DNA of 64,000 nucleotides from assembly GCA_022707425.1 (NCBI GenBank), contig JAKJAQ010000008.1, positions 2,498 through 66,497 of the forward strand, written 5' to 3'. Shown one piece after another: positions 2,088-37,560 of this stretch. The translations under genes and the position numbers were made by a program. The notes below the pieces were generated by a model that was not told the DNA's origin, ran no database searches, and saw only the letters and a program-made list of their open reading frames with translations. Positions within the stretch are counted from its first letter, which is position 1. Each line of letters begins with the position of its first letter. This DNA is from Candidatus Babelota bacterium. GTDB taxonomy: Bacteria > Babelota > Babeliae > Babelales > JACPOV01.

Positions 2088-2465
2088 ATGACCATATTTG
2101 AATCAAAACGAGTAAGAGATATAAAAAAAGCACAAAAAGAGAAGCTCCTTTTCCGTGAGCTCTCTCAGCTTTTTTTGCAAGCAACTATAGATGATTCACG
2201 ATTGCGCGATGTTTATGTAAACCGCGTAGCGTTATCAGCTGATAAAAGTATTTGCTTTATTTATTTCTATTCTCCGCAAGGTCCTGCTTTTTTTGAAGAA
2301 AAGCTCGATATTTTAAAACTATACAAACCTTCGTTGCGCAAAGCAATTGCTGAAAAAATCGATGCACGCTACACTCCTGACCTTGTTTTTAAATATGATG
2401 AACAGTATGAAAAAATAGAAAAAATGGAAAATCTGTTTGAACAAATTAAAAAATCAGACAAATGA
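2088..2465 (+). CDS. rbfA: ribosome-binding factor A
   Basis: 125 aa. RbfA-like pattern: KRVRDIKK...LLFRELSQLF...DSRLRDVYVNRVALSADKSICFIYF...LRKAIAEKIDARYTPDLVFKYD. Confidence 0.85.
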   Translation: MTIFESKRVRDIKKAQKEKLLFRELSQLFLQATIDDSRLRDVYVNRVALSADKSICFIYFYSPQGPAFFEEKLDILKLYKPSLRKAIAEKIDARYTPDLVFKYDEQYEKIEKMENLFEQIKKSDK

Positions 2466-3229
2466 TATTTTTAAATCCAATCATTCTGATTCCATTGCTT
2501 TTATGCTGGGGCTCATTTTTAAATGTAGTTGCTTATCGATTGATTCATGACGGTTCAATTTTTTTTGGTCGTTCTCAATGCATTCATTGTCATCATCAAC
2601 TTGCCTGGTATCACTTAATACCTGTTCTTTCATATATTTTTTTGCAAAAAAAATGCGCTTTCTGCAAAAAAACAATATCGTGGCTTTATCCGTTCATTGA
2701 GCTATTCACCGCCTTGTGCCTTTATTTGATGTTCACGAATGTGCCCGCTCAATTTTGGTTTGGCTATTTTATTTTCTTCTCTGCTTTGATGGTAACCATT
2801 AGAACCGATCTTGAAACATTCATGATTTCTCGATTTGCTACTTTATTTTTATTACCCATTGCTTTTATTCTTTCATATTTGGAATACATCCCATTGAATC
2901 TTGAGCAAGTTATTTTAGGCTGCATAACTGGCTATTTTTTTTTATTAGCAATCTCATCACTCTATTATTGGTTGACCGGACGAGTTGGGATGGGCCAAGG
3001 GGATATTGAACTGCTTTCATTAATAGGTGCATTTTGTGGCATAGAAGGATGGTGGATAACTATTGTTATTGCTTCATCTCTCGGTTCATTATCAGGCATT
3101 ATTTTTTTATTTTGTTCCGGAAAAAAAACAACAAAAATACAAATTCCTTTTGGTCCATTTTTGGCATTCGGTGCCATGAGCTATGTTCTCTGGCAAACAC
3201 CATTAAAATCGTTGTTATTAGCTCTCTAA
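2462..3229 (+). CDS. pilD: prepilin peptidase (A24 family, type IV leader peptidase/N-methyltransferase-like)
   Basis: ATGA overlap with rbfA. N-terminal Cys motif CIHCHHQL...CAFCKK. Multi-pass membrane protein with GQGDIELLSLIG (the GxGDxKL-type aspartyl motif) and PFGPFLAFG near the C-terminus. Confidence 0.85.
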   Translation: MIFLNPIILIPLLLCWGSFLNVVAYRLIHDGSIFFGRSQCIHCHHQLAWYHLIPVLSYIFLQKKCAFCKKTISWLYPFIELFTALCLYLMFTNVPAQFWFGYFIFFSALMVTIRTDLETFMISRFATLFLLPIAFILSYLEYIPLNLEQVILGCITGYFFLLAISSLYYWLTGRVGMGQGDIELLSLIGAFCGIEGWWITIVIASSLGSLSGIIFLFCSGKKTTKIQIPFGPFLAFGAMSYVLWQTPLKSLLLAL

Positions 3230-3796
3230 AGATCGTGTTAAATAATCAGGTTGCTCTGGTAAATCGTAGCACAGCAACGAGCACGACAATTTTTTTTTGT
3301 TTTTCAATTTTTTCTTCCATGTTAAAACGTGCTGATTATCGTTAAGTAATGAATACGCATGTATTAAGTAGCCATACATTCGCCAATCAGCTGCATTAAC
3401 TGGTGAAGAAAAACTTTTCTCAATCAACGAAATTGTCAGTGTAGGATTATGCTGATTAAAAAGCAGATGAACTGCTCCTAAACGATAAGCACTCGTGAAA
3501 TGCGGGTCAAGTTGAGAAATCCAGTTAATCCACGAAATAACATTTTCTACGTTTGCCTTATCAATATTTTGCTGCAAAAAATAAAACCAATGCCAATCGG
3601 CTACCATCATTTTCCATGAACCAAAACATTCAGCATTATACGTTGGACACCGAGCAAAACCTACTTCATTTTCTGGTAACTGTTTCCTAATTAAAAAGAG
3701 TGTTATGGCACACAATACACAATACTGCAATACAACAATCAAACCCGTGATAACTAATTCTTTAAGCCAGATCGTCATTCGTAATTTGAATTTCAT
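3218..3796 (-). CDS. hypothetical membrane-anchored protein, helical-repeat (TPR-like) ectodomain
   Basis: One N-terminal TM (LVITGLIVVLQYCVLCAITLFLI) followed by a helical Trp/Tyr-rich region. Overlaps the 3' end of the pilin gene on the same strand, suggesting co-transcription. No family recognised. Confidence 0.5.
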   Translation of the reverse strand: MKFKLRMTIWLKELVITGLIVVLQYCVLCAITLFLIRKQLPENEVGFARCPTYNAECFGSWKMMVADWHWFYFLQQNIDKANVENVISWINWISQLDPHFTSAYRLGAVHLLFNQHNPTLTISLIEKSFSSPVNAADWRMYGYLIHAYSLLNDNQHVLTWKKKLKNKKKLSCSLLCYDLPEQPDYLTRSLES

Positions 3797-4247
3797 GATG
3801 TTGATTCACAGTTAATCGATCAAGAATACCGTCTCCATCAATATCACCGGCTGCGGCAGCAACAAAGGTAGTCGCATCGGCCTTAGTGTTTCCTAATTCG
3901 CTTGAGCCAGCACCTAACTTGCCAGTAAAACAGCATTGCCCTTCTTGTCCACTAAAGCCATATGTATAATAGAAGCGTTCACTAGAACCACCACCAGCAT
4001 ATCCTTCAGGTTGCCATCCGGCACCATCTTTGCCAGTAAGCATAGTAGTATATTTGCCGTGCTCTGCCCAGTATGCTTTTTCAGCTAAATAGAGGCTACC
4101 TAAATTCATGTACGCTTCAGTTCGTTTTGCCTTTGCTAAAAATCGAAAAAAACTCGGCATTGAAACCATAGATAGGAATGCAACAATTGCAACAACAATC
4201 ATTAATTCAATGAGGGTAAATCCCCCATTACGAGTAACCCACTTCAT
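3762..4247 (-). CDS. type IV pilin / pseudopilin with class III signal peptide
   Basis: N-terminus MKWVTRNGGFTLIELMIVVAIVAFL is the canonical G|FTLIE prepilin cleavage/methylation motif plus hydrophobic helix. The C-terminal region contains GDIDGDGILD. Confidence 0.9.
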   Translation of the reverse strand: MKWVTRNGGFTLIELMIVVAIVAFLSMVSMPSFFRFLAKAKRTEAYMNLGSLYLAEKAYWAEHGKYTTMLTGKDGAGWQPEGYAGGGSSERFYYTYGFSGQEGQCCFTGKLGAGSSELGNTKADATTFVAAAAGDIDGDGILDRLTVNQHHEIQITNDDLA

Positions 4248-4625: not shown

Positions 4626-6047
4626 ATGATCAATCAAAAACAACCAGTTCCTCAAAAAGGCACAATGCCTGGTTCGACGAGAAATTATAATGAAGTGATT
4701 GAGTTTCTCGATAGCCACTGGTCAGCTACACGAACCGAGAAAAATATTGCTGCCGTAAAAGCGCTTGATAAAACTGTGGGGACTCCATCAAAATCGGTTT
4801 CAACCATACTTATTGGCGGTACCAATGGTAAAGGACTTACCATCAATTTTGCAGCTCATTTGCTCAAAGAAGAGGGGTTAAAAGTTGGTGCTTTTTACAG
4901 TCCACACCTTTTGACTTATAACGAGCGAATTTCTCTCAATAACGAAACGATTTCCAATAAAAATTTTACCGAACTTGCAAATGAAGTAATTAATGCTGCT
5001 GTTCTTAACGATATTAAAGCAGATTCTCTTGATATTTTGACTGTCATGGCATTGCTTTATTTTAAACAACAACAAGTTGATGTTGCATTATGTGAATTAA
5101 CACTTGGAAATGGCGTTGATCCTCTTTCAATCTGTTCTGCACAAATAGTTGCAATTACTCGCGTAACACAAAATAGCTCAACTATTGTTGATGAAGAAAT
5201 TCTTAAAAAACAAATTTTAGATCTGATGCTATTTACAAAACCTAACAGCTTTGTAGTTTCAGCAGACCAAAGCAAAGCTCATTTACAATTAATGCTCGAT
5301 GAAACAAAACGAATGGGTGCTCAATGGTCTATGCCAATTCGTAAACTTGCACAATTACGTTATCCATTCGAACAACTTTTTGGTAGATGCGCAGCGCTTG
5401 CTGAACGTATCAGTCAAATTTTTGTAGATAATTTTGCAAATAAAGATGCATTACACATTGAAAATAGCTTGCTTGCAAAACTTAAAGGGCAACGTGGTCG
5501 ACCAACTCTTGAAAAGAAACGTTTCGATGAAATGAATCCTAAAAAAACTATCGAGCAATTCTGGAAAGAAACTGTAACTTCATTGCCAGCTCACTTTGAA
5601 CTTCTCGATAAAGAAAAACCAACAATTTTACTCGATAATGCAAGCAACATAGATGCATTACAGAATCTATTACTTGGCATCCGCCTTCTTCATTATCAAC
5701 GTCCATTAAAAGGACTTACCTTTATCTTTGGCTGCGATAAAAACAAATTGCATGTTGATGAATTTTTACGCTTACTGCGTTATTTTTCAAAAAAGAATTC
5801 TGCCAATGTTATTTTCTGCCCAATTTCTACAACCCTTCCAGGTGTTAAATCTGAGTCATGGGATGTTGATCAAATTGCAATCGATGTGAAAAGTCTCAAA
5901 ATTAAGGCACGTTCTGCTAAGAATTTTGAAGAAGCATTTGATGCTGCAAAAAAATCTGTTGATGAACGCCACGGTTTGGTAGTTATCACTGGATCGCCAT
6001 CAATTGTTGCAGAATATTGGCACCACAAAGGCATTAAGAAAATCTAA
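4626..6047 (+). CDS. folC: folylpolyglutamate synthase / dihydrofolate synthase (Mur ligase family)
   Basis: P-loop ILIGGTNGKGLT, SPHLLTYNERI, and LLDNASNIDAL (DxAHN-like). Track ORF starts at GTG 4614. ATG 4626 lies behind GGAGTGGAG and is the more likely start. Confidence 0.75.
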   Translation: MINQKQPVPQKGTMPGSTRNYNEVIEFLDSHWSATRTEKNIAAVKALDKTVGTPSKSVSTILIGGTNGKGLTINFAAHLLKEEGLKVGAFYSPHLLTYNERISLNNETISNKNFTELANEVINAAVLNDIKADSLDILTVMALLYFKQQQVDVALCELTLGNGVDPLSICSAQIVAITRVTQNSSTIVDEEILKKQILDLMLFTKPNSFVVSADQSKAHLQLMLDETKRMGAQWSMPIRKLAQLRYPFEQLFGRCAALAERISQIFVDNFANKDALHIENSLLAKLKGQRGRPTLEKKRFDEMNPKKTIEQFWKETVTSLPAHFELLDKEKPTILLDNASNIDALQNLLLGIRLLHYQRPLKGLTFIFGCDKNKLHVDEFLRLLRYFSKKNSANVIFCPISTTLPGVKSESWDVDQIAIDVKSLKIKARSAKNFEEAFDAAKKSVDERHGLVVITGSPSIVAEYWHHKGIKKI

Positions 6048-6050
6048 ACC

Positions 6051-6320
6051 ATGAATTTCCTCAACTGCGTTTTACCAATCGCTGTTGGGTGTATAAGTGG
6101 AGCAATCTATGGGCTTTTGTTCTTGCGAACAAAAGCCCTTTTCTTTAACAATCATTCTCTTGCACCGATTATCACCTTTCTACGATTACTTACGTTGTCT
6201 CTTTTTTTTGTTTATGTATTGCGTACCTCGCTTGTTCATTCTATACTCGTATTAATAACCTTTTTTACTGCATTTTGGTTGATCATTTTCAAAAGGGCCA
6301 CGCAGCATGGAAGCTTTTGA
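6051..6320 (+). CDS. small hydrophobic protein, ATP synthase protein I (AtpI/AtpR)-like by position
   Basis: 89 aa with 3 predicted TM helices, immediately upstream of and overlapping atpB. The call rests on position and topology only. Confidence 0.45.
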   Translation: MNFLNCVLPIAVGCISGAIYGLLFLRTKALFFNNHSLAPIITFLRLLTLSLFFVYVLRTSLVHSILVLITFFTAFWLIIFKRATQHGSF

Positions 6321-7047
6321 AGGAGTTAAGTCGTCACTCTGGAACCCATTTGGTTGGTTTGGTATAGATAATAGTCTGCTCAAAATTAACGGTTCAACCA
6401 TCATTAACACATGGATTGTTCTGTTTTTGCTTTCTGCATTTTTACTTTTTTGCCGTCTTCTTTTTTTTAAACAGCCGATAGTTCGCTATCTTGTTACTCA
6501 AGGTGTTACCAATTTTATGGAGATGGTGGTTCATAACATGGGCACATTCATCTATGCACATTTTTTAATGGTTATTTCTCTTTTTTTATTCATTTTAGCT
6601 TGCAATTGGATAATAATTTTACCATGGACAAAAGAACCAACATCAGACATTAATACTACAATTGCACTCGCACTCATAGCATTTTTTTATAAAGAAGTTG
6701 CATCCATCAAAGCTCGCGGTTGGTGGGGATATTTTAAAGAATTTTTAGAACCATTTTTTATTATGTTTCCCGTTAATGTTATTGGCCACTTTTCCAAAAT
6801 AATTTCACTCGCATTTCGTCTTTTTGGTAATATTTTTGGTAGTTCTATCATTATGGATTTGTATACTCACGTTATTTCTATGGTGTGGGTTGCTGAGTTG
6901 GTTGGACTATTTTCAGGACTCAATTTTCTTATTGTTATTTTCTTTGGTCTTTTTGAAGGACTTATTCAAGCATTTGTATTTGCTATGCTCACGCTAACCT
7001 ATATTAGTCTTGCAATACAAAAAGATGTTCATGGTGAAGGAATTTAA
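6307..7047 (+). CDS. atpB: F-type ATP synthase subunit a
   Basis: Multi-pass membrane protein with the subunit-a signature ISLAFRLFGNIFGSSIIM (essential Arg in RLFGN) and the C-terminal helix GLIQAFVFAMLTLTYISLA. Confidence 0.9.
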   Translation: MEAFEGVKSSLWNPFGWFGIDNSLLKINGSTIINTWIVLFLLSAFLLFCRLLFFKQPIVRYLVTQGVTNFMEMVVHNMGTFIYAHFLMVISLFLFILACNWIIILPWTKEPTSDINTTIALALIAFFYKEVASIKARGWWGYFKEFLEPFFIMFPVNVIGHFSKIISLAFRLFGNIFGSSIIMDLYTHVISMVWVAELVGLFSGLNFLIVIFFGLFEGLIQAFVFAMLTLTYISLAIQKDVHGEGI

Positions 7048-7048
7048 C

Positions 7049-7996
7049 ATGATCGACCCAGCACTTCTGCATTATATGAGTATCGCAATCGTTATTGTAC
7101 TCACAACAGTTGGTGCAACAGTTGGCAGTATACGTGCAAGTAAATCTGCTCTTGATGCAATTAATATTGCCCCCGCAGCAAAAAATGAAATAACGCGCGC
7201 TTCCGTAATTGGTCTTGCATTAATTGAAACGGCTCCGATACTTGGTCTTATTTTAATTTTGATGCTTTTGCTCGTTCGCTCCACAACACCAACGCTTCCC
7301 GTTGCCTTAGCAGAATTGGGTATTGCTCTTGGCATGGGCATTACCGGATTTATAGGTGGCATCGTTTCTGCCTATCCAACCCAAGAAACGTGCTTTGCAA
7401 TAGCTCGTCAACCTTTTTTTAGTCAAAATTTGTTAAATTTAATGGTAATCACACAAACAATCATTCAAACACCACTTATTTTTGTGTTTCTTGTTTCTCT
7501 TTTTATTTTTTTTCAATTGAATCTTCTTGTTTCGATTAAAGCTGGACTCATATTGATGGCATCAGGGTTGTGTATGGGAATTGGATCAGTTGGTCCGTCA
7601 ATTGGTCTTGGTAGATTCGCTCGTACTGCATGCAAAAGTGTCGGCATAAATCGCAAAGCATACAGCTACATTCTTCCTTTCACACTCATGAGCGGCGCAT
7701 TTATCGAAACACCACTCATTTTTGCATTTCTTGTTTCTCTTATCTTACTTGGCAATATTTTAAATACCGATCCATTAATAGGAATTCGATCAATTTGCGC
7801 TGCATTATGCATTGGTTTTGGTACATTTGCACCTGGTATCAATTCAAGTAAAACTGCAAGTTCTGCATGCCAGCAAATGGCATTAAATCCATCCGCTTAT
7901 TCTTCATTATCGCAAATAAGTATGTTTAGTCAGGGAATTATTGATGCTGCAGCAATTTATGCATTGCTCACTGCATTGTTTATTGTGTTGCTCAAA
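7049..7996 (+). repeat. four tandem c-subunit hairpin modules (7049-7282, 7283-7528, 7529-7768, 7769-7996)
   Basis: Protein-level internal repeat. Modules 2 and 3 share QTPLIFVFLVSL / ETPLIFAFLVSL. The modules are diverged at DNA level, so this is not a recent duplication or an assembly artefact of identical repeats. Confidence 0.8.
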
Positions 7997-7999
7997 TAA
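7049..7999 (+). CDS. atpE: ATP synthase subunit c, four fused hairpins (8 TM) in one polypeptide
   Basis: ATG 7049 is 1 nt after the atpB stop, behind GGTGAAGGA. Four consecutive c-like helical hairpins, each with a Gly-rich helix 1 and a polar loop (IAPAAKNE / IARQPFFSQ / INRKAYS / LNPSAYS). The helix-2 key residues are E (7226-7228), Q (7466-7468), E (7706-7708) and D (7943-7945). There is no stop codon between the modules. Confidence 0.85.
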   Translation: MIDPALLHYMSIAIVIVLTTVGATVGSIRASKSALDAINIAPAAKNEITRASVIGLALIETAPILGLILILMLLLVRSTTPTLPVALAELGIALGMGITGFIGGIVSAYPTQETCFAIARQPFFSQNLLNLMVITQTIIQTPLIFVFLVSLFIFFQLNLLVSIKAGLILMASGLCMGIGSVGPSIGLGRFARTACKSVGINRKAYSYILPFTLMSGAFIETPLIFAFLVSLILLGNILNTDPLIGIRSICAALCIGFGTFAPGINSSKTASSACQQMALNPSAYSSLSQISMFSQGIIDAAAIYALLTALFIVLLK

Positions 8000-8039
8000 T
8001 TTAGGAGAGTAAAAAACCAGACACACTCGATACGAAAGA

Positions 8040-9185
8040 ATGTGGATGAAGAAAAAGGAGTTGCATGTTCTGTACATTATCACCAAGCTCGAGCTTGGTG
8101 GCGCTCAAAAAGTTTGCCTCAGTTTGTTCAATGGCTTATCTTCACAAGGACATCGAAGTTTTCTCATCTCAGGCACAGATGGAACTTTAACTAACCAAGT
8201 TTCAGAAGAAAAAAATATTATTTTACTTTCTTCTTTCGTAAGAGAAGTGGGTTGGCAATCATTTATCACTGAATGGCGCGCGTTTAAAGAGCTTGTACGA
8301 AAAATAAAACAGTTAAAAAAAGAATTTCCTGATCTTATTGTTCATACACACAGCACGAAAGCCGGCATTCTCGGTCGATGGGCAGCATGGTGGTGTGGCA
8401 TTGAAAAACGTATTCATACGGTGCACGGATTTGCATTTCATGAATATCAAACATGGTTGAAGTGGGTGTGTATTTATGCAGTTGAATTCATAACAAGTTT
8501 TATTACTACCCATTATGTTTGCGTTTCATCACATGATGTTAAAACCGGTATTCGATTATTTCCTCGTTTTACACAAAAACATTCGATCATTCGTGCTGCA
8601 GTTGATACAAAACAATTTTATCTTCCCGCTCAAAAAAATAAATTCGAACGATCAACAAACACATTTGTTTTCGGCACCATTTCTTGTTTTAAAGAACAAA
8701 AAAATCTTTTTGATTTATTACACGCATTTAAAGATGCATATGCAAAAAACAACACAATTAGACTCGAAATTATCGGTGATGGTATTTTGCGTCCCGCACT
8801 CGAAGAATGGATCAAGCACCATGAATTAACACAAGTTATTACGCTGCATGGCTGGCAATCTGAAGTTGCACCAATCATGATTGATTGGCATGCATTCGTG
8901 CTCAGTTCACTTTGGGAAGGATTGCCATGTGCAGTTGTCGAAGCGCGATTGCTCAAACTACCAGTTCTATCGTACAACACCGGTGGTATTCATGATATCA
9001 TTTTTAGTGGTGAAAACGGTTTTTTGTATAAACAAAAACAGTGGCATCAATTAGCGCATGGTATGCTCACTCTTGCTCAAAATAATCAGCTTTATAAAAA
9101 ATTAGCTTCTTATCACGATGATTTACGTTCATTTGAACAATCGTATATGATTCAGCAACATCTTACCCTTTACCGCGATTTTTAA
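8040..9185 (+). CDS. glycosyltransferase, GT4 (GT-B fold) family
   Basis: N-terminal LHVLYIITKLELGGAQKV. C-terminal EX7E-type region SSLWEGLPCAVVEARLLKLPVLSYNTGGIHDIIFSGENGFL. Confidence 0.85.
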   Translation: MWMKKKELHVLYIITKLELGGAQKVCLSLFNGLSSQGHRSFLISGTDGTLTNQVSEEKNIILLSSFVREVGWQSFITEWRAFKELVRKIKQLKKEFPDLIVHTHSTKAGILGRWAAWWCGIEKRIHTVHGFAFHEYQTWLKWVCIYAVEFITSFITTHYVCVSSHDVKTGIRLFPRFTQKHSIIRAAVDTKQFYLPAQKNKFERSTNTFVFGTISCFKEQKNLFDLLHAFKDAYAKNNTIRLEIIGDGILRPALEEWIKHHELTQVITLHGWQSEVAPIMIDWHAFVLSSLWEGLPCAVVEARLLKLPVLSYNTGGIHDIIFSGENGFLYKQKQWHQLAHGMLTLAQNNQLYKKLASYHDDLRSFEQSYMIQQHLTLYRDF

Positions 9186-9252
9186 GTGACATTTTATTGC
9201 ATTTCAAGTAATTTGTGGAGCAATAAGGGACATTGACACGTAAGGAATTTGT

Positions 9253-10164
9253 ATGCACTTCAAAACAGTACTTGAATCAATCGGAAACACGCCGCTCGTC
9301 AAAGTTAATTTTGGCACACCGCCGTGTGTTCTTGCAAAACTTGATTATTTAAACCCCGGCGGCAGCGTGAAAGATCGCTCTGCGTTGTATATGATTGAAG
9401 AAGCTGAGCGTGAAGGATTATTAAAGCCAGGCGGCACTTTGATTGATGCATCATCAGGTAATCAAGGAATCGCAACTGCAATGATTGGTGCACTGAAAAA
9501 TTATAAAGTAATTATTACCGTGTCAGAAAAAATCAGCAAAGAAAAACTGCAAACTATCAAAGCCTATGGAGCTGAGGTTGTCATGTGTCCTTCAACTTCA
9601 TATTTAGAAGATCCAAATAGTTATCACAGCAGAGCGGTAGAAATTCACAAAAAAACACCAAATTCATTCATGCCAAATCAATATTTTAATGTGGCCAATT
9701 CGCGAGCACATTATTTTTCACTCGGTCCTGAAATATGGAACCAAACAAATGGCAAAGTTACACACCTGCTTGGTGCAGTTGGAACAGGTGGTCATGTAAG
9801 TGGCCTTGGCAGATATTTAAAAGAAAAAAATCCAAACATTAAAGTTGTTGCACTCGATTCTATCAATTCCTGGCGCGCTACAAAAGGAAACCCAAAGCCG
9901 TACAAAATTGAAGGAATCGGTGTTGACTTTGCATCACCGGTACTTGATTATTCAGTTATTGATGAATTTATTGGTGTCACTGATGAAGATGGCTTGGGAA
10001 TGCTAAAAATAATGGCGCAAAAACATGGTCTATTAATTGGACCAAGTAGTGGTGCTGTTGCTTGGGCAGGAAGAGAATACAGCAAAAAATTGTCTCCTGA
10101 TGCAGTGGTTGTCATGCTTTTTGGCGATTCTGGCCGCGCATATTTAACTAAAGATTTTTATTAA
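9253..10164 (+). CDS. cysK: PLP-dependent cysteine synthase / cystathionine beta-synthase family protein
   Basis: IGNTPLVKV, LNPGGSVKDRSA (PLP lysine), SSGNQGIATA, GTGGHVSG. Substrate specificity cannot be resolved from sequence alone. Confidence 0.75.
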   Translation: MHFKTVLESIGNTPLVKVNFGTPPCVLAKLDYLNPGGSVKDRSALYMIEEAEREGLLKPGGTLIDASSGNQGIATAMIGALKNYKVIITVSEKISKEKLQTIKAYGAEVVMCPSTSYLEDPNSYHSRAVEIHKKTPNSFMPNQYFNVANSRAHYFSLGPEIWNQTNGKVTHLLGAVGTGGHVSGLGRYLKEKNPNIKVVALDSINSWRATKGNPKPYKIEGIGVDFASPVLDYSVIDEFIGVTDEDGLGMLKIMAQKHGLLIGPSSGAVAWAGREYSKKLSPDAVVVMLFGDSGRAYLTKDFY

Positions 10165-18511: not shown

Positions 18512-19966
18512 TCAGCCACCTTTAATAACCGCGATCGGTTCTAATCGCGCAACTTTGCGCGCCAAATGTGCATCATGCACAACTTGCACTACTTCTTCAA
18601 CATCTTTATATGCAGTCGGTGCTTCTTCTGCCAACCCTGCATCCGAATCACAACGCACAACAATGCCCTTTTTTTCTAACTGACCGCGCAATGCTGAACC
18701 ACGCACCGTTTTTTTTGCTTGAACACGCGACATTCTGCGACCCGCTCCGTGGCAACAAGTGCCAAATGAAAGATCCATGCCTTTTTTAGTCCCAACCAAC
18801 ACATATGAAGCAGTACCCATTGTTCCCGGAATTAATACAGGCTGACCAATGGCGTGATATTTCGCCGGGAGTTCAGGTCGTCCTGGACCAAAAGAGCGTG
18901 TCGCACCTTTTCGATGCACTAACAATTCCAGCTCGCTGCCATTTATACTATGTTTTTCTTTTTTTCCAATATTGTGTGAAACATCATAAATCAAATTAAG
19001 CTGCGCACCATTTCCTAATATTTTTTGCCAACTTTCACGTACCCAATGACCAATCAAGTGACGATTTGCCCACGCAAAATTTGAGGCAGCTTGCATTGCT
19101 GCAAAATAATTTTGACCTTCTTGAGAATTAAACGGTGCACACACTAATTCACGATCGGGCAATTCAATATTCCATTTTTTTAACAATGGCATGAAATCGC
19201 GAACATAATCGGTACATGTTTGGTGGCCAAGTCCACGAGACCCACAATGGATCATCACCGTTACTTGGTTCATGCGCAGTCCCATGGTAGATGCAACTTC
19301 TTGGTCAAAAATTTCGGCAACTTTTTGCACTTCCAAAAAATGATTTCCTGAACCGAGTGTACCAAGTTGATCTGTGCCCCGATTTTTTGCTTTCTCTGAA
19401 ACACGGTCCGGATTTGCACCACTCATGCATCCATGCTCTTCGCAAAATTCAATATCAGTTCGCTCACCATATCCTTTTTTAAGCATATACGGTGCGCCTT
19501 CTGCTAATACATGATCAAGCTCCCTTTCCTTCAGCACCAATTTGCCACCACGCCCTACTCCAGAAGGAACCGCATGAAAAAGAGCCGTTGCAAGAGCATC
19601 AAGACTTTTTTTTATTTCCTCAAATTCATTATTTGCTGCAAGTAATCGCACACCGCAATTAATATCATACCCAATTCCCCCGGGAGAAATCGCGCCACCG
19701 TGGTCGATTGCAGTAGCTGCAACACCACCAATTGGAAATCCATACCCTTCATGAATATCGGGCATAGCAAACGCATAACCAACTATTCCAGGTAAGGTTG
19801 TGATATTCACCAATTGCCACAATGAACGATCTATACCAATTTCTTTCAACATTTTTTCAGTTGCAAAAACTCGTGCGGGCACACGCATATCAGAACGAAA
19901 GGAACGTTCAATTTCATATAAATAGGGTTCAATTTTTAACATTTGAGATCGATCAATCGTTTGCAT
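18512..19966 (-). CDS. rtcB: RNA-splicing ligase RtcB
   Basis: PDIHEGYGFPIGG, GGIGYDINCGVR, GSGNHFLE, IHCGSRGLGHQ, CHGAGR. Confidence 0.95.
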   Translation of the reverse strand: MQTIDRSQMLKIEPYLYEIERSFRSDMRVPARVFATEKMLKEIGIDRSLWQLVNITTLPGIVGYAFAMPDIHEGYGFPIGGVAATAIDHGGAISPGGIGYDINCGVRLLAANNEFEEIKKSLDALATALFHAVPSGVGRGGKLVLKERELDHVLAEGAPYMLKKGYGERTDIEFCEEHGCMSGANPDRVSEKAKNRGTDQLGTLGSGNHFLEVQKVAEIFDQEVASTMGLRMNQVTVMIHCGSRGLGHQTCTDYVRDFMPLLKKWNIELPDRELVCAPFNSQEGQNYFAAMQAASNFAWANRHLIGHWVRESWQKILGNGAQLNLIYDVSHNIGKKEKHSINGSELELLVHRKGATRSFGPGRPELPAKYHAIGQPVLIPGTMGTASYVLVGTKKGMDLSFGTCCHGAGRRMSRVQAKKTVRGSALRGQLEKKGIVVRCDSDAGLAEEAPTAYKDVEEVVQVVHDAHLARKVARLEPIAVIKGG

Positions 19967-23286: not shown

Positions 23287-24336
23287 ATGATAACTTCATT
23301 TTGTTTTGTTGCAGGTGGCTCAGGAGGACACAGCGTTCCTTGTTTAACCATTGCCTATAATTATCAACAACAATATCCAGATGCACAGTGTATATTTTTC
23401 ACCTCAAGTCGAACACTTGATCAAAAAATTGCTAAAGAATATACATGGCTTTCACAAATCCAACATCTTCGGCTTACTTCGTTTCCTGGTTGGCGATTGT
23501 GGCGTTATCCATCATTTTTTTGGCTGATTGGTACCGCATTTGTTAAAGCTTATACTATTTTGCGGACAGAAAAACCGCGTAAACTCATAAGCCTGGGTGG
23601 TTTTGTTTCAGTTCCCGTGTGTTTAGCAGCCGCTTTGTTGCGCATCCCCATCGAATTGTATGAACTCAATGCTGTACCAGGCAAAGCAGTTCGTTTGTTA
23701 GCGCTTTTCGCCCAACGAATTTTTATTTGTTTTGAGCAAGCTCAAAATAACTTACCAAGCGAAAAATGTATTTTTGCTCCTTATCCAATTCGATTTTCAA
23801 ACGTTTTGTCTTTATCCTCGAAAAAATTACTGGCTCCAGTAAAAAATTTAACGCTCTTAATTGTCGGTGGATCACAAGGTTCCGCTTTTATTAATTCCGC
23901 TATTAAAAAGTGGCTCTCGCTTCCCAATCGTTTATCGATCCCATTTACCATTATTCATCAAACTGGGGCTCAACATCTTGATGATATGCAACGTTTTTAT
24001 GCAGATGCCGGAATAGATGCGCACGTTTTTGATTATCACCATCAACTCGAATCTTTTTATCAGCAAGCAGATATTGTCGTGTGCCGTGCAGGAGCAGGAA
24101 CATTGTTTGAATTACTCTTTTTTAACAAACAATGCATTACCATTCCGCTTGAAGATTGCGCTGATAACCATCAATATGCCAATGCAATTGCGCTCGCTCA
24201 AAAATATCCAGAATTAGTAAGTGTCGTCAGACAACATGAACTTCAAAAAGATCCTGAGTTGCTCGATTGTGCACTGCGCTTGAAACTTTTTCATGATGGC
24301 CAACCATCTGGTTTTGAGCCTAATCCAAACACATAA
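23287..24336 (+). CDS. murG: undecaprenyldiphospho-muramoylpentapeptide beta-N-acetylglucosaminyltransferase
   Basis: AGGSGGHSVPCLTIA, GGSQGS, VVCRAGAGTLFEL, NHQYANA. Confidence 0.9.
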   Translation: MITSFCFVAGGSGGHSVPCLTIAYNYQQQYPDAQCIFFTSSRTLDQKIAKEYTWLSQIQHLRLTSFPGWRLWRYPSFFWLIGTAFVKAYTILRTEKPRKLISLGGFVSVPVCLAAALLRIPIELYELNAVPGKAVRLLALFAQRIFICFEQAQNNLPSEKCIFAPYPIRFSNVLSLSSKKLLAPVKNLTLLIVGGSQGSAFINSAIKKWLSLPNRLSIPFTIIHQTGAQHLDDMQRFYADAGIDAHVFDYHHQLESFYQQADIVVCRAGAGTLFELLFFNKQCITIPLEDCADNHQYANAIALAQKYPELVSVVRQHELQKDPELLDCALRLKLFHDGQPSGFEPNPNT

Positions 24337-26201
24337 TAATTAACACCACTTTTTCTCACCAACGGATAATTAACAATACTAATTGGTCCCGTCAAAAGAG
24401 CGTCAATCATATGTTGCCCTTGCGGAGTAATTGCAGCAGCATTTGTTTTCGGATCGATCGCCGCAAATAAACTTTTATTTCCTTTGAGCGCTAAATAATT
24501 TTTTATATCGGTCGCCACTTTTGTTTTGTCTTTATTATAATTATTAACCCAATTAATTAAATTCGTTGTGAGCTCCTGCATCACATCAGGTTTTAAAACA
24601 AGCGCTCCTGAACTATCTTTTATGTAAAAACTATCATCAAGATACATGTTGCTTATTAATTGATCGATGCGTAACTGCGGTGGCTGGACATAGTAATAAA
24701 AATCGGCAGAGCTATCAACACCAGTTGGTAAAAACCGATCAGCAAATAGTACAAATCCAGAAATGCCAGAACTTGCTGCATCTTTGGGATCCACATCGAC
24801 AATTTTTCCGTTACTGTTCGCTTGCAACTTACTCAGATCAAATTTATTACCAACCAAACCTACCTGAGAATATACCGCACCTTGCCCAATTTTTCCTGAA
24901 GCTAAACGATCAAGAAATTTTTTGGCTTGTGCATCATCCATTGTTTGCAATGTGACACCATAGAGCCATGCTTCTTTTTCTTTAATTTGTGGACGAACCA
25001 CGGTAAAATCTGCAACTTTGCCCGCGTCAATTTTTTGCATGAGTTGATAATCAGCAGTTTTATAAACTACCCAAAAAGATTCAACAGCATCAAAAGGAAT
25101 TGAACTCGGATCGGTTTGTTCTTTATTTTGTACACTTATTTGTTGTTCCTGAGTCGCTGATTGTCGCCATACATGACATTTTACTGGATTAATATCGCGA
25201 ACTTTGCCCGCAACCGGTTGTGGAAAATTGCCAATCGAAAGCCCTTGCATACTCACCATGGGGCCAGTTGCACCATCATATAATTGATAGGTATACAACA
25301 TTGGACCAGCAGGGTCATATTGTTTGGTTGTATCGTTATAGGCCACATTGCCGATACCTAGTGGCTGCACAGGAATTGATCCGGCAGATTTTCCACCTGC
25401 TGTGAATACAAAAGAACGGGTTTCTCCGGGGCCAGGACGAATTGATGTTGGATTATTAGCCGTCGATTGCAATGAATTAAATGACAATATTTCAAGTGTG
25501 ACGGTGTATTGTTTTCCATCTTTTGTAAAAGAAAGTTGACCCTCTTGTTTGGAATTATTAAAAAAAGACCCTAAAAAATCTGTTGAATCGGTTTTAACTC
25601 CCAAATACTCTGCCTTCAATTGGCTTCCCCCAAAATAAACACGATAATAATAAATATTATTATCATTGGGACTCCATGGATAAATTTGGCGAAACATAAT
25701 TTGTAAATTACCAAATTGTCCGCTCGCAACAGTCAAAAATTTATTAAGATCGGTTGTGGGAGTAAGTTTTGCAAAAAATGTATTTGCCGGATCTGCATAA
25801 AGTACTACATTGAGATAAAGCTGCTGATTAAAAAAAGTTTTTCCCGATGTTGAAAATGGCTGAATAAGCGCAGAATTATCATAATCTTCTGATATATTTG
25901 CTCCCATTGCCGGAACAACTCGTTGTTGACCCGCAAGAACCAATACATTTGAATCGTTCCAAACAACATAACTATAATGATAATCTGCTGTCACCACACC
26001 AATACTTTGCCCCATACCTTTCAGGAAGTTGAGTCCTCCATCAGCTGCACCTTGAGCAGTATTTACAAATTTGTCCTTCAAATCACTCCATTTTTGGTCA
26101 ATTCCCTGTTGATCTGTCCCTTGATTTCCTTGTCCACCCGCATAAATCACACTGGTACACAACCCAAGCAGAAACACCCTGCATAATCCTCTCCAAACCA
26201 T
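24291..26201 (-). CDS. large exported protein of unknown function
   Basis: ATG 26201 is preceded by AAGGAGG. Signal-like MVWRGLCRVFLLGLCTSVIYAGG. 636 aa, rich in Gln/Asn/Tyr/Gly. No motif recognised. Confidence 0.7.
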   Translation of the reverse strand: MVWRGLCRVFLLGLCTSVIYAGGQGNQGTDQQGIDQKWSDLKDKFVNTAQGAADGGLNFLKGMGQSIGVVTADYHYSYVVWNDSNVLVLAGQQRVVPAMGANISEDYDNSALIQPFSTSGKTFFNQQLYLNVVLYADPANTFFAKLTPTTDLNKFLTVASGQFGNLQIMFRQIYPWSPNDNNIYYYRVYFGGSQLKAEYLGVKTDSTDFLGSFFNNSKQEGQLSFTKDGKQYTVTLEILSFNSLQSTANNPTSIRPGPGETRSFVFTAGGKSAGSIPVQPLGIGNVAYNDTTKQYDPAGPMLYTYQLYDGATGPMVSMQGLSIGNFPQPVAGKVRDINPVKCHVWRQSATQEQQISVQNKEQTDPSSIPFDAVESFWVVYKTADYQLMQKIDAGKVADFTVVRPQIKEKEAWLYGVTLQTMDDAQAKKFLDRLASGKIGQGAVYSQVGLVGNKFDLSKLQANSNGKIVDVDPKDAASSGISGFVLFADRFLPTGVDSSADFYYYVQPPQLRIDQLISNMYLDDSFYIKDSSGALVLKPDVMQELTTNLINWVNNYNKDKTKVATDIKNYLALKGNKSLFAAIDPKTNAAAITPQGQHMIDALLTGPISIVNYPLVRKSGVNYYVFGLGSKPDGWPS

Positions 26202-26354
26202 AGTAGCCTCCTTGATGGCAGATTCCGTTAAAATCCACTGATAGCCTACACACCCCTCCCAGTGCCGCGCAATGATTGACCCCCTTGAATAAAATTTTAA
26301 AAACAGTAAACTTATTAATGAAAAATATTTCAAATAGTTTATATTGGAATTATT

Positions 26355-27386
26355 ATGAAAAAAAGAAGAGCCATATTTTATAGTTTATTAACACTTTTGC
26401 TTTTTCTGCAATATCCATTAAAACCAATGGATTTTATAAAAAATATTACGAACGCCAGCGCTAGTACAATCACCCAATCCATCTACTGGGGATCTGCAAT
26501 GTACTATTTATGGTCAACAATGCGTGAACCAAAAGGCACACCTTTAAAAAATGATAGTCCCACGGTCGCCTATTTAAAACAAAAACGTAAGGAATTAGGG
26601 TACCCTGAGTCGCTCGATAATATTAAATTTTACAGTGGCGACGTTCCTTTTTCAGGAAATAACCATATTTATCTACCAATGAATGATGAGCTAATTATCG
26701 CATACTGCTTGAATCCAGATACAATTAAAGATACCGCCAAAGCCCAATCAACTCGTAAAGCAATAGAAAATTTTAAACGTGAACAAAACGAATCGATTGA
26801 AAATTTTGCAAAGAAATCAAATGTTGATGCCGATTCATCTAAAATAATTGCAACTCAATTGTTTGGAAAAGGATCACCAGACGATATGATTCCAACAATT
26901 TGTCATGAATACGGCCATATATATCACAATCATTATCATCAATTTTGGTTAGCTCCATTCATTACATGGACTTGCAGCGAAATCGGAGCACAAGTTTTAG
27001 ATACGCATATTTTTGGTGGCAAAATGCAGGATTATCCGCTCACTACACTTGGTGTCAAATTAGCATGTGCAGCCACTGGCGCAATAGCGCATAGATGGTT
27101 CGCAGAATACCAAGCTGATGGTGAAGTCATTAAAAGAATTAAAAATTCTACATTGCTAGAAAAAGATGCACATCTTTGGCGCGCACTCCATAAATTATCT
27201 GACCAGCAAATAAAACACTACCCCTCTTTGATAAAACCCGCTGCAAAAATTTTATCAAACTGGCAACATCCAAGCGATTTGAGTAGAGCACAACGAATGC
27301 AAAAAGCTGCAAATAACCAAAAAATATATAGCCAACAATTACAACAACAATCATTTCAAAATATCAAAAACGTCCTTGATCGATAA
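26355..27386 (+). CDS. exported putative zinc metallopeptidase (HExxH, M48-like)
   Basis: Signal-like MKKRRAIFYSLLTLLLFLQ. HEYGH at ICHEYGHIYHNH. Downstream WFAEYQADG resembles the M48 third-ligand E..AD motif. Confidence 0.45.
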   Translation: MKKRRAIFYSLLTLLLFLQYPLKPMDFIKNITNASASTITQSIYWGSAMYYLWSTMREPKGTPLKNDSPTVAYLKQKRKELGYPESLDNIKFYSGDVPFSGNNHIYLPMNDELIIAYCLNPDTIKDTAKAQSTRKAIENFKREQNESIENFAKKSNVDADSSKIIATQLFGKGSPDDMIPTICHEYGHIYHNHYHQFWLAPFITWTCSEIGAQVLDTHIFGGKMQDYPLTTLGVKLACAATGAIAHRWFAEYQADGEVIKRIKNSTLLEKDAHLWRALHKLSDQQIKHYPSLIKPAAKILSNWQHPSDLSRAQRMQKAANNQKIYSQQLQQQSFQNIKNVLDR

Positions 27387-29262
27387 AAATAGTTATTGCG
27401 TTTGCATCATCCTTTGCGCAAGGTTTACCTGTTCGCTCGTGAACCGTAATTTCTCGCAACGAAGGATCAATCGCGAACTGTTTTTTTACAATCGGCAACT
27501 TTTGTTGAACATTCAACCACAAGGGAAACGCAGTTTTAGCACCAAAAATATTTCTTCCTAAAGATCGATTGTCGTCACACCCAATATACACACCGGTTGT
27601 ATAGGTTGGTGTTGAACCAATGTGCCAGCAGGAGCGACATTTATCATGCGTTCCTGTTTTACCAATTGCTGCACATTCAAGTAGTTGTGGAAATCTTTTT
27701 TGCAAACGGTCAAAACTCAAACTCAGAATTTTGGCAACCTGATCGCTCACACGAGAATTGAAAACACGCCGTTGTTCAATTTTCATTTTCCAAATCTTAG
27801 TTCCCATACCATCTTTTATCCACCGAATTAAATGTGGTTCAACGTAGATGCCATTATTTGCAAATACATTAAACATGCCAACTGCTTCTTTGAGTGTTCC
27901 ATCAACACAGCCAAGAGCTAAAGAAGGATAGGGCACTATGCGAGCCGAAAAATTAAAACGCTGTGCAACATCAACTACTTTCTGTACGCCAATTTTAAGT
28001 AATGTTTTAATAGTGACAATATTATTCGAATGCGAAAGTGCATACGCAAGTGTCATTTGCCCATCAAACGTATTTGAAAAATTATCGGGTTTCCACACAC
28101 TATTTTCTTGCACCATTTCGAACGGTTCATCAATTTCAGTTTCAAAAAATTGAACACCATTTTCTACTGCAGCTGCATATACAATTGGTTTAAAAATCGA
28201 ACCAAATTGTCTAAAAGCACAGTGCGCACGATCAAATTGCGAAATTGAAAAATCATAGCCACCAATTAACGCTTTGATTTCTCCACTCTTTACCTCAGTA
28301 CAAATGAGTGCACCATCAATTTCTGGCATCATTTTTTCACGCAAATGTACAATCTGTTTTTTGAACTCTTCAATCGCATCTTTTTGCATGGCGCTGTTCA
28401 AGGTTGTTTGGATTACTAACCCACCGCGATACAATTTATCACGGCCAAATTCTTTTTCTACAAAATATCGAATCCATTCTTTTGCATGCGGTGCAATCAT
28501 AATTGAATGATCAACAATAGCTAGTTGTTTCTGCATAGCATCTTTGTACTCTTCGAACGTAATAAATTTGCATTGCATCATTGAGTTCAAAACAATATTG
28601 CGTCGCTGTTGACACGAAAGAGGAAATAATAATGGACAATAATTTTGCGGCGATTTCATAATGGCAGCCAACACCGCTGCTTGATCAATCGTAACTTGCT
28701 CAACTGTTTTTCCCCAAAACCGTTTTGCTGCTGCGCCGATGCCATAAATACCGCAACCAAAATAAACATGATTAAGATACAGTTCCATGATTTGATGTTT
28801 ACTCAATTGTCGCTCAAGCAAAATTGCAACAACTTGTTCTTTAATTTTTCGCACAAACGTCTTACTCGCATCAAAATATAATAAGCGCACGAGTTGTTGC
28901 GTAATCGTACTTGCTCCTTGTGCTCGTTTTGCTTGGTATAAATTTACAAAGAGTGAACGAATGATACCACGAAAAGAAATTCCTGCATGATGAAAAAAAG
29001 AACGATCTTCTGCAGCCAAAAATGCATGAATAACATGTTCAGGAATAGCTGAAAATTGCACCGGATCGCAGCGCTCAATTTGAAATCGTGTCAATTCATT
29101 GCCTTCATCATCAAGTACAATTGATGGACGTGATTGAATATCATTTTGTAATGAAGCAACATCGATTGTTGGATAAATAAGGAAAAAAAATAATATGCCG
29201 AGCAAAAAAGCAGCACAGCAAAAAAGTACACCAAAAAGATAGGAAAAAAAACGAAACAACAT
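27364..29262 (-). CDS. mrcA: class A penicillin-binding protein (glycosyltransferase GT51 + transpeptidase)
   Basis: GT51 motifs AAEDRSFFHHAGI and GASTITQQL. Transpeptidase motifs SIFKP (SxxK), SHSNN (SxN) and KTGT. Confidence 0.9.
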   Translation of the reverse strand: MLFRFFSYLFGVLFCCAAFLLGILFFFLIYPTIDVASLQNDIQSRPSIVLDDEGNELTRFQIERCDPVQFSAIPEHVIHAFLAAEDRSFFHHAGISFRGIIRSLFVNLYQAKRAQGASTITQQLVRLLYFDASKTFVRKIKEQVVAILLERQLSKHQIMELYLNHVYFGCGIYGIGAAAKRFWGKTVEQVTIDQAAVLAAIMKSPQNYCPLLFPLSCQQRRNIVLNSMMQCKFITFEEYKDAMQKQLAIVDHSIMIAPHAKEWIRYFVEKEFGRDKLYRGGLVIQTTLNSAMQKDAIEEFKKQIVHLREKMMPEIDGALICTEVKSGEIKALIGGYDFSISQFDRAHCAFRQFGSIFKPIVYAAAVENGVQFFETEIDEPFEMVQENSVWKPDNFSNTFDGQMTLAYALSHSNNIVTIKTLLKIGVQKVVDVAQRFNFSARIVPYPSLALGCVDGTLKEAVGMFNVFANNGIYVEPHLIRWIKDGMGTKIWKMKIEQRRVFNSRVSDQVAKILSLSFDRLQKRFPQLLECAAIGKTGTHDKCRSCWHIGSTPTYTTGVYIGCDDNRSLGRNIFGAKTAFPLWLNVQQKLPIVKKQFAIDPSLREITVHERTGKPCAKDDANAITIFIDQGRF

Positions 29263-36366: not shown

Positions 36367-37560
36367 TTAGAGCACGTTAATCATGAATAACGATTCCATA
36401 TTGCTAAACCTGTTAATTGCATGCTCACCTTTACATAACATCCACTCGGGAACAACACGTTGTGCATATTCCATGAAAAATTTAAGCCCAACACGATATT
36501 CAATATTACCATCGGGATAGCTAAATTTTTCAGGAAATGCAATTCCTATACCGAAAAGACGCGGTCCGATAATACCTGAAATGTCATCATAAATTAAATT
36601 ATTAGTTCCATTAATTGGTGGTAATTCATTTCGTTCAAAGCCGATTGCATAAATCAGTTTTGTACATAAGGGTAACCATTTGCGTAGAATAGTAGGTTTA
36701 TTTTTTAATCGTGCCAGATTTTTTGGTGGTTTTTTTTCTAGTACCTCTTTTGCCCATTGCGCCGTTGATCCTTTAAGTCCAGCATTTTGATTTTGAACCC
36801 AGGTTCCCATATCAACGGTATACACAATTGGTTTATTGAAAAAATTAACAATATATTTAACCGGTAGTTCAGATAAATATTTTAAAATTAATATTGCTGA
36901 ATGCGCACTGCCAAAAACACCAACAACATCGGTTGGCGTGAGGTAACTTGCCAACGTCGATTTATCAAGTGCAAGATCAAGCGGAATAGCTTGCTTATTT
37001 TCATAATGCAACTCTTTCGGATGTGATCCTGTTGCGAGGACCACAAAGCGTGCATGCTGTTCATGCACATTCTGTTTATCGGTTGATTCAATACCAACGT
37101 GCCATAAATCATCATCAAACTGCAGCGAAATGAGTGAACCCTTTATTGCCTGAACTCGTGAAAGTAATCCTTGGGTAATTGCACGTAAGGGACGCACAAT
37201 AACATGGAGCGGAAATGCCGTTTTTTGGTCCATTTTTTTTAATTCATCGATCATTTCAGGTGCACAATCGTTAAATACTTTGCAAGCAGTTAAAAATTCA
37301 ACGTACATCCACGTAGGCGCATTTCCCGGAACTGTTTCATAATAGTGCCCCAATCTACCTACATCAAATTCAGGATCCAGCCAAATAATAGATGATCCCT
37401 CAATTCCTAAATCTAGCAGCAGACCAATAACTGCAATGCCTGCAGGTCCAGCACCAACAACAACCCATTTATTATTTTGAATCTCACTTTGCGCGGTTGC
37501 TGCAAGGCAAAAGAAAAACACGAAAAATATGATAAAGTTTTTGAATAATTTTTTCATCAC
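36367..37560 (-). CDS. FAD/NAD(P)-binding oxidoreductase with N-terminal signal/anchor
   Basis: Signal-like MMKKLFKNFIIFFVFFFCLAATA, then WVVVGAGPAGIAVIG (GxGxxG). Second dinucleotide-fold-like VGVFGSAHSAILI. Confidence 0.65.
   Translation of the reverse strand: MMKKLFKNFIIFFVFFFCLAATAQSEIQNNKWVVVGAGPAGIAVIGLLLDLGIEGSSIIWLDPEFDVGRLGHYYETVPGNAPTWMYVEFLTACKVFNDCAPEMIDELKKMDQKTAFPLHVIVRPLRAITQGLLSRVQAIKGSLISLQFDDDLWHVGIESTDKQNVHEQHARFVVLATGSHPKELHYENKQAIPLDLALDKSTLASYLTPTDVVGVFGSAHSAILILKYLSELPVKYIVNFFNKPIVYTVDMGTWVQNQNAGLKGSTAQWAKEVLEKKPPKNLARLKNKPTILRKWLPLCTKLIYAIGFERNELPPINGTNNLIYDDISGIIGPRLFGIGIAFPEKFSYPDGNIEYRVGLKFFMEYAQRVVPEWMLCKGEHAINRFSNMESLFMINVL

Follow-up and report, generated by a model that had tools for sequence, protein, structure and literature searches.

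The 64,000-nucleotide (nt) stretch of Candidatus Babelota contig JAKJAQ010000008.1 analysed here (henceforth the window) encodes, on the forward strand at 7049..7999, a subunit c of the F-type ATP synthase in which four helical hairpins are fused in a single chain (hereafter c4), three of them with a carboxylate and one with a glutamine at the ion-binding position. The fusion is a lineage-wide trait of the Dependentiae, which is old and under purifying selection. It is likely that c4 is the only, or at least the main, rotor subunit c of these bacteria and that n copies of it make up a ring with 4n hairpins and 3n ion sites in an ATP-driven pump. In every rotary ATPase, the gear ratio is set by how many hairpins of the c-ring carry ions, and the only documented natural F-type exception to the rule of one hairpin, one site that we found in the literature searched is the two-hairpin c1 of Acetobacterium woodii.

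A subunit c of four fused hairpins

The c4 gene is an uninterrupted frame of 316 codons and a stop, whose ATG sits 1 nt past the stop codon of atpB (7045-7047), with GAAGGA present 8-13 nt upstream of it. An alternative longer frame with a TTG start at 7010 would overlap atpB; the orthologues all start at the position of the ATG instead. Hairpin 1 (7049..7282, forward strand as are all the others; amino acids (aa) 1-78) bears the carboxylate E60 (GAA, 7226-7228) and a NIAP loop that has lost the Arg of the RQP motif, and hairpin 2 (7283..7528; aa 79-160) has Q140 (CAA, 7466-7468) in place of the carboxylate and an ARQPFF loop (7403-7420), being the only one of the four to retain the ARQP sequence (7403-7414). 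Hairpin 3 (7529..7768; aa 161-240) has the carboxylate E220 (GAA, 7706-7708) and an INRK loop, and hairpin 4 (7769..7996; aa 241-316) has the carboxylate D299 (GAT, 7943-7945), Y304 and an LNP loop.

The Pfam profile PF00137 (ATP-synt_C) matches c4 in four separate stretches with 77.7 bits (cut-off 24), and the NCBIfam F0F1 subunit-c models match it in three to four stretches; the F0F1-c equivalog scores of 69-87 bits lie under the full-length cut-offs of 116-128, as these models expect a single hairpin. Thus, c4 has the PF00137 profile, hairpins with a Gly-rich first helix and an adjacent F-type subunit a, all as in other F-type c subunits, but it departs from them in being neither a single hairpin of ~70-90 aa nor provided with a carboxylate in each hairpin. 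Pairwise protein identity among the four hairpins in a MAFFT alignment is 21-24%, and the sole notable DNA repeat is of 44 nt with 84% identity (7458-7501 versus 7698-7741, spacing 240 nt), coding for (Q/E)TPLIF(V/A)FLVSL; given this divergence, c4 is not a collapse of identical repeats. Profile-profile scores between the hairpins rank 3-4 > 1-4 > 2-3 > 1-3 > 2-4 > 1-2, an order that matches neither a clean (1,3)(2,4) duplication pattern nor a serial one.

The AlphaFold2 model of c4, made with 117 homologues, has eight long helices in four hairpins, with a mean predicted local distance difference test score (pLDDT) of 96.2 and a predicted template modelling score (pTM) of 0.92. The linkers between the hairpins, of 6-8 residues each, are confidently modelled and lie on the side opposite to the loops, as in other fused proteolipids. 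In a fold search of solved structures, the top match is A. woodii c1 (4bem_J; root-mean-square deviation 1.7 Å over 158 columns, 25% identity), followed by NtpK of Enterococcus hirae and the eukaryotic V-ATPase proteolipids, and no solved chain spans more than two of the four hairpins of c4.

When each hairpin was separately aligned by HMMER to the sequences of solved structures (E <= 0.01), all the matches were F-type c subunits, namely A. woodii c1 and c2, Spirulina c15, chloroplast c14, and those of Ilyobacter tartaricus and Fusobacterium nucleatum (c11), with no V/A-type chain among them. These alignments place E60, Q140, E220 and D299 in the ion-binding Glu column of the solved subunits, and the MAFFT alignment of the four hairpins places them in one column. 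E60 is aligned to the Glu of A. woodii c2, Q140 both to E65 of I. tartaricus c and to the Gln in hairpin 2 of A. woodii c1, E220 to E62 of Spirulina c15, and D299 and Y304 to E62 and Y67 of the latter protein. By sequence, fold and partner, c4 belongs to the F-type c family.

An earlier note on this DNA (the original prediction) had described a single 316-codon frame that begins 1 nt after atpB and holds four hairpins, with E, Q, E and D at the carboxylate position; the frame and the hairpin coordinates are borne out by the sequence, and the four residues by their codons and by the alignment of each hairpin to solved c subunits. Its expectations of four separate ATP-synt_C domain matches and of eight helices agree with the profile search and the model, respectively.

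Two other affinities were considered and rejected. As a V/A-type proteolipid (NtpK/c/K), c4 scores 22.4 bits with NF005124 against a cut-off of 127, and its partner is an F-type subunit a of 246 aa. As for an N-ATPase, the alternate c model TIGR03322 scores 73.5 bits (cut-off 130.85) and the alternate a model TIGR03306 scores 85 (cut-off 302), and the locus has neither the atpDCQRBEFAG gene order nor adjacent F1 genes.

Phyletic distribution and selection

An identical c4 protein is encoded in three independent assemblies, namely GCA_002068925.1 and two Logan assemblies. A first homologue search listed 120 proteins of 283-324 aa (nearly all 306-324 aa) with 40-100% identity to c4, and the named organisms among those listed are all Dependentiae or Babeliales. 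A scan of one genome per GTDB species recovered a c4 relative in at least 104 species genomes, all of Dependentiae type, including the closed genomes AP025250.1 and CP074345.1 (strain Noda2021 and Vermiphilus pyriformis), and an exhaustive search with HMMER, covering 1.84 billion cluster representatives, recovered 141 of them at E <= 1e-30, nearly all of 300-325 aa. In comparison with the 89%-identical orthologue at locus L001, the ratio of nonsynonymous to synonymous substitution rates (dN/dS) of c4 is 0.07, with values of 0.03-0.13 for the single hairpins including hairpin 2, which indicates strong purifying selection on all four of them.

These data bear on the reading of c4 as an artefact of sequencing, assembly or annotation, in which missed stops or frameshifts would have run four c genes into one. 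Nothing beyond the unusual length speaks for it, and set against it are the identical frame in three assemblies, orthologues of the same length across so many species, closed genomes among them, the low dN/dS and the short, confidently modelled linkers, which together make its probability negligible. The same observations (three assemblies, at least 104 species and dN/dS of 0.07) uphold the claim of the original prediction that the hairpins reflect internal duplication and not an assembly collapse. It had also raised the survey of related genomes, in which the same four-hairpin fusion was found throughout the lineage, and the prospect that such proteins are already described and common there: the fusion is indeed lineage-wide and not peculiar to the source genome, but we found no description of it. 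Annotation of these proteins as 'ATP synthase F0 subunit C', or sometimes as 'hypothetical protein', conceals the fusion.

Evolution of the ion-site pattern

Conservation was counted over 188 distinct c4 sequences and site patterns over ~245 full-length sequences, the latter including distant representatives. At the ion-binding position, hairpin 1 has E in 184 and D in 4 of the 188, hairpin 2 has Q in 184, E in 2 and M in 2, hairpin 3 has E in all 188, and hairpin 4 has D in 124, with E (60), G (3) or S (1) in the others; 186 have Y304. Of the four loops, that of hairpin 2 shows the highest conservation (majority fraction 0.81 versus 0.57-0.62), with its Arg in 185, Gln and Pro in 188 each, and Phe in 185 of the sequences. 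Among the ~245, the site pattern is EQED in 141, EQEE in 55, EEEE or EEED in 24 and E[MLV]E[DE] in 8, with a few singletons of other patterns.

The 24 all-carboxylate proteins constitute one divergent clade with 28-34% identity to the window protein (e.g. L082:10001-10969 and L090:7779-8750; proteins P0264, P0198, P0244 and P0245), which has Gln at the helix-1 ligand position in hairpins 1 and 3 and one member of which is named 'Candidatus Babeliales bacterium'. Their genomic context at L082 and L090 is the same as in the window: a small open reading frame (ORF), atpB, c4 and a glycosyltransferase. On a neighbour-joining tree, the loss of the hairpin-2 carboxylate is approximately a single event. 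To our knowledge, every single-hairpin c has the carboxylate; hence, the four-carboxylate c4 is the older state, implying that the fusion came first and the loss in hairpin 2 second. Thus, the all-carboxylate clade probably shows the state before the change from Glu to Gln.

That Met, Leu and Val are tolerated at the hairpin-2 position marks it as a non-site. This bears on another reading, in which all four hairpins bind an ion, the Gln of hairpin 2 being part of a working (e.g. Na+) site, and the ion/ATP ratio is unchanged. In line with such a proposal, a Thr follows the key residue in hairpins 1-3 (the ET/QT motif), E or Q is found in many family members at the position of helix 1 whose I. 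tartaricus counterpart is a Na+ ligand, and Gln is capable of ligating Na+. However, Met, Leu and Val, as seen in relatives, are incapable of ion ligation, hairpin 2 has Ser and not Gln or Glu as the partner residue in helix 1, and we know of no c-ring site that works without a carboxylate. The replacement E56Q kills function in the Bacillus PS3 enzyme (PMC8809890), and the Gln hairpin of A. woodii c1 is counted as a lost site (PMC9171764). We therefore give very little credence to a fourth working site.

Putative ligands of the coupling ion

Through the HMMER hairpin alignments, c4 was mapped to positions 32/65/66/67/70 of the I. tartaricus numbering. These correspond to S27, E60, T61, A62 and L65 in hairpin 1, to S107, Q140, T141, P142 and F145 in hairpin 2, to L187, E220, T221, P222 and F225 in hairpin 3, and to S266, D299, A300, A301 and Y304 in hairpin 4. 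In solved rings, a site is made of residues 32 and 65 of one hairpin together with 63/66/67/70 of its neighbour, and in E. hirae NtpK the hairpin that completes the site is the preceding one. By this geometry, hairpin 4 of the adjacent c4 copy would supply the rest of the E60 site. Most family members combine E or Q at 27 with T300 and Y304 at this protomer junction, a Na+-type ligand set; members of the window's clade instead combine S or G at 27 (codon 7127-7129 for S27) with A300 (codon 7946-7948), which may be an H+-type set. Positions 27 and 300 covary, with 132 sequences having E/Q plus T and 56 a small residue (S, G or A in the clade of the window) plus A, versus 29 mixed cases. Mutual information with average product correction (MI-APC) ranks this pair high, along with I59-A301, I59-A305 and I59-G296; pairs from non-adjacent hairpins also score. 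As read from these residues, the change at 27/300 may represent a switch from a Na+-type to an H+-type site at the protomer junction.

Genomic context of c4

Gene neighbourhoods were compared between the window and 80 other loci (81 sources in all), taking ±10 kilobases (kb) around c4. The F-type subunit a gene atpB (6307..7047, forward strand; 246 aa) matches PF00119 with 123 bits (E 1.8e-35) as well as the NCBIfam F0F1 subunit A models, and has the essential Arg in the sequence AFRLFGN; the R-L-[FWY]-G-N motif is present in atpB of all 81 loci. Across the loci, atpB and c4 are mostly separated by -4 to +2 nt, which suggests coupled translation. Overlapping the start of atpB by 14 nt is an ORF (6051..6320, forward strand) for an AtpI-like small membrane protein of 89 aa, a probable helper of c-ring assembly. 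A homologous ORF recovered with jackhmmer lies directly 5' of atpB in 78 of the 81 sources; the Noda2021 orthologue (L044) has a weak match to PF03899 (ATP-synt_I; E 0.0028), and the ORF of the window has no Pfam match. In the NCBI record of the organism this ORF is uncalled, leaving a gap between the genes at 8636 and 8896 (L084).

The conserved unit consists of the AtpI-like ORF, atpB and c4, with a Mur-ligase/FolC-like gene on its 5' side and a cysteine synthase gene on its 3' side. No second c ORF was found in the window, nor next to atpB or within ±10 kb in the 81 sources. The Fo cluster of the window ends at a GT4-family glycosyltransferase gene (8040..9185, forward strand; PF00534 and PF13439), which is not an ATP synthase gene. 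In the clade of the window this gene begins 40 nt past c4; it is also found in the all-carboxylate clade (L082:10972-12114 and L090:8771-9919) and is missing in many intermediate clades, e.g. at L044 and L068.

A second group of fused F-type c proteins

The exhaustive search also recovered a group of fused F-type c proteins close to the c subunit of I. tartaricus, with four (~320 aa), five (~405 aa) or six (~485 aa) hairpins, from Desulfobacterota-like genomes whose named sources are Desulfarculus, Desulfobacterales, Thermodesulfobacteriota and 'Deltaproteobacteria'. Both these and the c4 of Dependentiae are F-type and have many hairpins per chain, and the second group has Gln at most of the carboxylate positions: the usual patterns have a single carboxylate (E/Q/Q/Q, E/Q/Q/Q/Q and E/Q/Q/Q/Q/Q), with a minority having two or three. 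Their operons, as seen in three contexts from four loci (L081:10001-11497; L087:7654-9270; L088:5318-6934; L089:8001-9741), have the order gene1, a, fused c, single-hairpin c, b(') b, delta, alpha, gamma, beta and epsilon. The single-hairpin c, of 83-86 aa and with the full ESTxxY Na+ motif, adjoins the fused c or follows it after one inserted gene (L087/L088). The inserted gene, between a fused four-hairpin c and the single-hairpin c, codes for PanD (aspartate 1-decarboxylase, PF02261; L087:8637-8987 and L088:6301-6651), the atp operon being of the standard kind in other respects. This group looks like an extended version of the A. woodii-type hybrid rotor and not like a homo-oligomer.

We found no description of this second group in the literature searched. 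The original prediction knew of no four-hairpin F-type c, and the full-text literature that we searched likewise yielded no description of one, a provisional result as most subscription journals lie outside its coverage; such proteins do exist beyond the Dependentiae, though, in this separate group of four-, five- and six-hairpin forms. Multi-hairpin F-type c subunits are thus more widespread than the searched literature suggests.

A proposed rotor and its gearing

We infer how the ring is composed and how large it is, which ion couples the enzyme, what the hairpin-2 loop does and in which direction the enzyme runs, as follows. With the help of the AtpI-like protein, n copies of c4 would assemble into a ring of 4n hairpins, closed by contacts between hairpin 4 of each copy and hairpin 1 of the adjoining one, and the ring would rotate against subunit a with its conserved essential Arg. 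E60, E220 and D299 of hairpins 1, 3 and 4 would carry one ion each, and the Gln hairpin 2 would cross the a/c interface empty; the ARQPFF loop of this hairpin is probably the retained docking contact for the gamma/epsilon foot of F1. Each turn (3 ATP) would then move 3n ions instead of 4n, making the ratio n ions per ATP and not 4n/3. The known rings of F-type enzymes comprise 8-17 subunits, and n could therefore be 2, 3 or 4. With the ring of the best structural match, 4BEM, having 11 hairpin equivalents, n = 3 (12 hairpins) is the nearest choice, which would give 3.0 ions per ATP versus 4.0 for a normal 12-mer. As the maximal ion-motive force of a pump is the phosphorylation potential divided by the ions per ATP, going from 4.0 to 3.0 would raise it by one third. 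A ring built in multiples of four hairpins, with sites in three of every four and a reduced number of ions per ATP, is plausible and consistent with all the data, though strict only if c4 is the sole c subunit.

A lowered ratio would also be consistent with the physiology of an ATP-importing organism without a respiratory chain, by the same logic as is accepted for the c subunits of V-ATPases (PMC9171764). According to Yeoh et al. 2016 (PMC4776705), all TM6 genomes encode an ATP synthase, without an electron transport chain and with ATP/ADP translocases, and these authors propose that the enzyme hydrolyses ATP and thereby maintains the gradient; Deeg et al. 2019 (PMC6561590) state the same for Chromulinavorax. 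The fused c is absent from both accounts.

A more specific version of this rotor has exactly three copies of c4, V-ATPase-like gearing, chemically unlike sites and a possible switch of the coupling ion. Taken jointly, these parts make a tentative reading, which we would rather doubt than assert. In such a homo-trimer, 12 hairpins with nine sites would move exactly 3 ions per ATP, and the ring would share the three-fold symmetry of F1, with the carriers unevenly spaced in steps of 60°, 30° and 30°. It would represent the F-type enzyme's own route to a V-ATPase-like pumping gear, via the all-carboxylate c4 that survives in the sister clade. The three sites would differ chemically from one another, and the family may record a switch of the coupling ion.

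Several points weigh against the general proposal of a c4 rotor. In the fused c10 of Bacillus PS3, ATP synthesis is lost with one E56Q replacement and falls to ~36% with E56D (PMC8809890); hence, an F-type enzyme does not necessarily tolerate a Gln hairpin, and in Dependentiae, as in A. woodii, the interface between a and c must have adapted to the empty step and to mixed Glu/Asp carriers. The covariation described above lends weak support to the contact between hairpins 4 and 1 and to a change of ion, as the 27/300 switch is mostly that of one clade. Walker-motif scans and phmmer searches with the b, delta, alpha, gamma, beta and epsilon sequences of two complete operons found no gene for any of these subunits in the 64-kb window or within ±10 kb in the 80 other loci. 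Finally, in the four loci examined, each of the other fused F-type c forms, with four, five or six hairpins, is accompanied by a single-hairpin c gene in a complete operon.

It is this last association that makes a hybrid ring the main rival for the Dependentiae. In such a ring, as in A. woodii, one or a few copies of c4 would be joined by an ordinary single-hairpin c encoded elsewhere, e.g. at the head of a separate atpE-FHAGDC operon, and the ring would not be confined to multiples of four and its loss of sites would be smaller. The A. woodii rotor is indeed a hybrid (PMC9171764; 4bem), and the location of the Dependentiae F1 genes elsewhere means that part of the operon lies outside the examined loci. 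On the other side, none of the 81 sources has an extra c ORF near atpB or within ±10 kb, and most hairpins of the fused c in hybrid systems have lost the carboxylate (usually one is left, in a few cases two or three), whereas c4 retains it in three or four, like a subunit that works by itself. Moreover, where bacterial atp operons are split, the c gene usually remains beside atpB. On balance, we regard the hybrid ring as unlikely.

The separation from F1 genes raises the further alternative of an Fo-only module, in which the AtpI-like protein, subunit a and c4 act without F1, e.g. as a regulated passive ion channel or as a remnant. The three-gene cluster is self-contained and is flanked in all loci by unrelated genes (Mur-ligase-like, glycosyltransferase and cysteine synthase), with no F1 gene nearby. 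However, the F1-contacting RQP loop of hairpin 2 is kept almost without exception, which would be pointless without F1, all four hairpins are under strong purifying selection, and a free Fo would leak ions; the two genome papers also state that Dependentiae encode an ATP synthase (PMC4776705, PMC6561590). A function without F1 thus appears highly improbable.

Other features of the window

A scan of 5900-9400 for promoters and terminators returned no more sites than expected by chance, as judged from shuffled sequence. A perfect 12-bp G+C-containing stem-loop with a T-run lies at 6111-6138, ~60 nt inside the AtpI-like ORF and shortly after the Mur-ligase-like gene, which ends at 6047; it may terminate transcription of that gene and overlap the first part of the Fo cluster, or may have arisen by chance. 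Pfam searches on 25 large ORFs of the window found only housekeeping genes beyond the Fo cluster. The window codes for a type IV pilin and a prepilin peptidase (2462-4247), RtcB (18512-19966), a class A penicillin-binding protein (27364-29262) and MreB (47917-48954). Eight large ORFs (~350-680 aa) have no Pfam match at E <= 0.001, as is typical of the poorly known Dependentiae proteome; among these are the ORFs at 357-1754, 24291-26333, 36367-37560, 41257-42558, 42630-43994, 44819-46968 and 48981-50222.

Comparison with known systems

The closest known counterpart of c4 is A. woodii c1 (PDB 4BEM chain J), which is likewise F-type, has its hairpins fused in one chain and has Gln for the ion-binding Glu in one of them; it is the best PDB sequence match for three of the four hairpins of c4 and the second best for hairpin 4. 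However, c1 has two hairpins and one site, as against four hairpins and three carboxylates in c4, and it is a lone minority subunit among nine one-hairpin c2/c3 subunits encoded beside it (PMC9171764), whereas c4 has no single-hairpin c gene beside it and its F1 genes are unlinked. The V-type proteolipids (NtpK, PDB 2BL2; eukaryotic c, c' and c'') resemble c4 in being fused, in having fewer carboxylates than hairpins and in serving ATP-driven pumps with a lowered ion/ATP ratio. They differ in having two hairpins with one site and a large V-type subunit a/I, the partner of c4 being an F-type subunit a (PF00119).

Archaeal A-type c subunits, listed with 1, 2, 3 or 13 hairpins in a 2022 paper (PMC9171764), are comparable to c4 in that the forms with 2, 3 and 13 have multiplied hairpins and a partial loss of sites; they belong to A1Ao enzymes, no four-hairpin form is listed among them, and the sequence affinity of c4 is F-type. 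The same paper describes the A. woodii hybrid rotor as having nine one-hairpin c subunits and one V-type c, and presents duplication followed by loss of sites as the accepted route to a lower ion/ATP ratio. Engineered fusions (c2, c5 and c10 of Bacillus PS3; c2 and c3 of Escherichia coli) show that joining hairpins at the periplasmic end is functional and hence that the topology of c4 is workable (PMC8809890). These constructs are artificial, whereas c4 is natural, under purifying selection, and has E, Q and D together in a single chain.

Provisionally, c4 is thus new as a fused, reduced-site proteolipid in an F-type setting, in which only the two-hairpin c1 has been documented. It fixes a site-to-hairpin ratio of 3:4 in one polypeptide, and both an ancestral-like 4:4 clade and variants with Met, Leu or Val in hairpin 2 survive alongside it. 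Together these offer a natural series for studying how an F-type a/c interface tolerates empty steps (which are lethal to the PS3 enzyme), how Glu and Asp sites are combined within one rotor, how ring size and symmetry are set, and how F-type enzymes evolve towards V-type pumps, as well as a concrete and testable account of how a membrane potential is built up in parasites that import ATP. In its proposed working, c4 would be comparable to the reduced-site proteolipids of the V-type or A. woodii type, but its subunit a, companion c and number of hairpins make it a member of neither.

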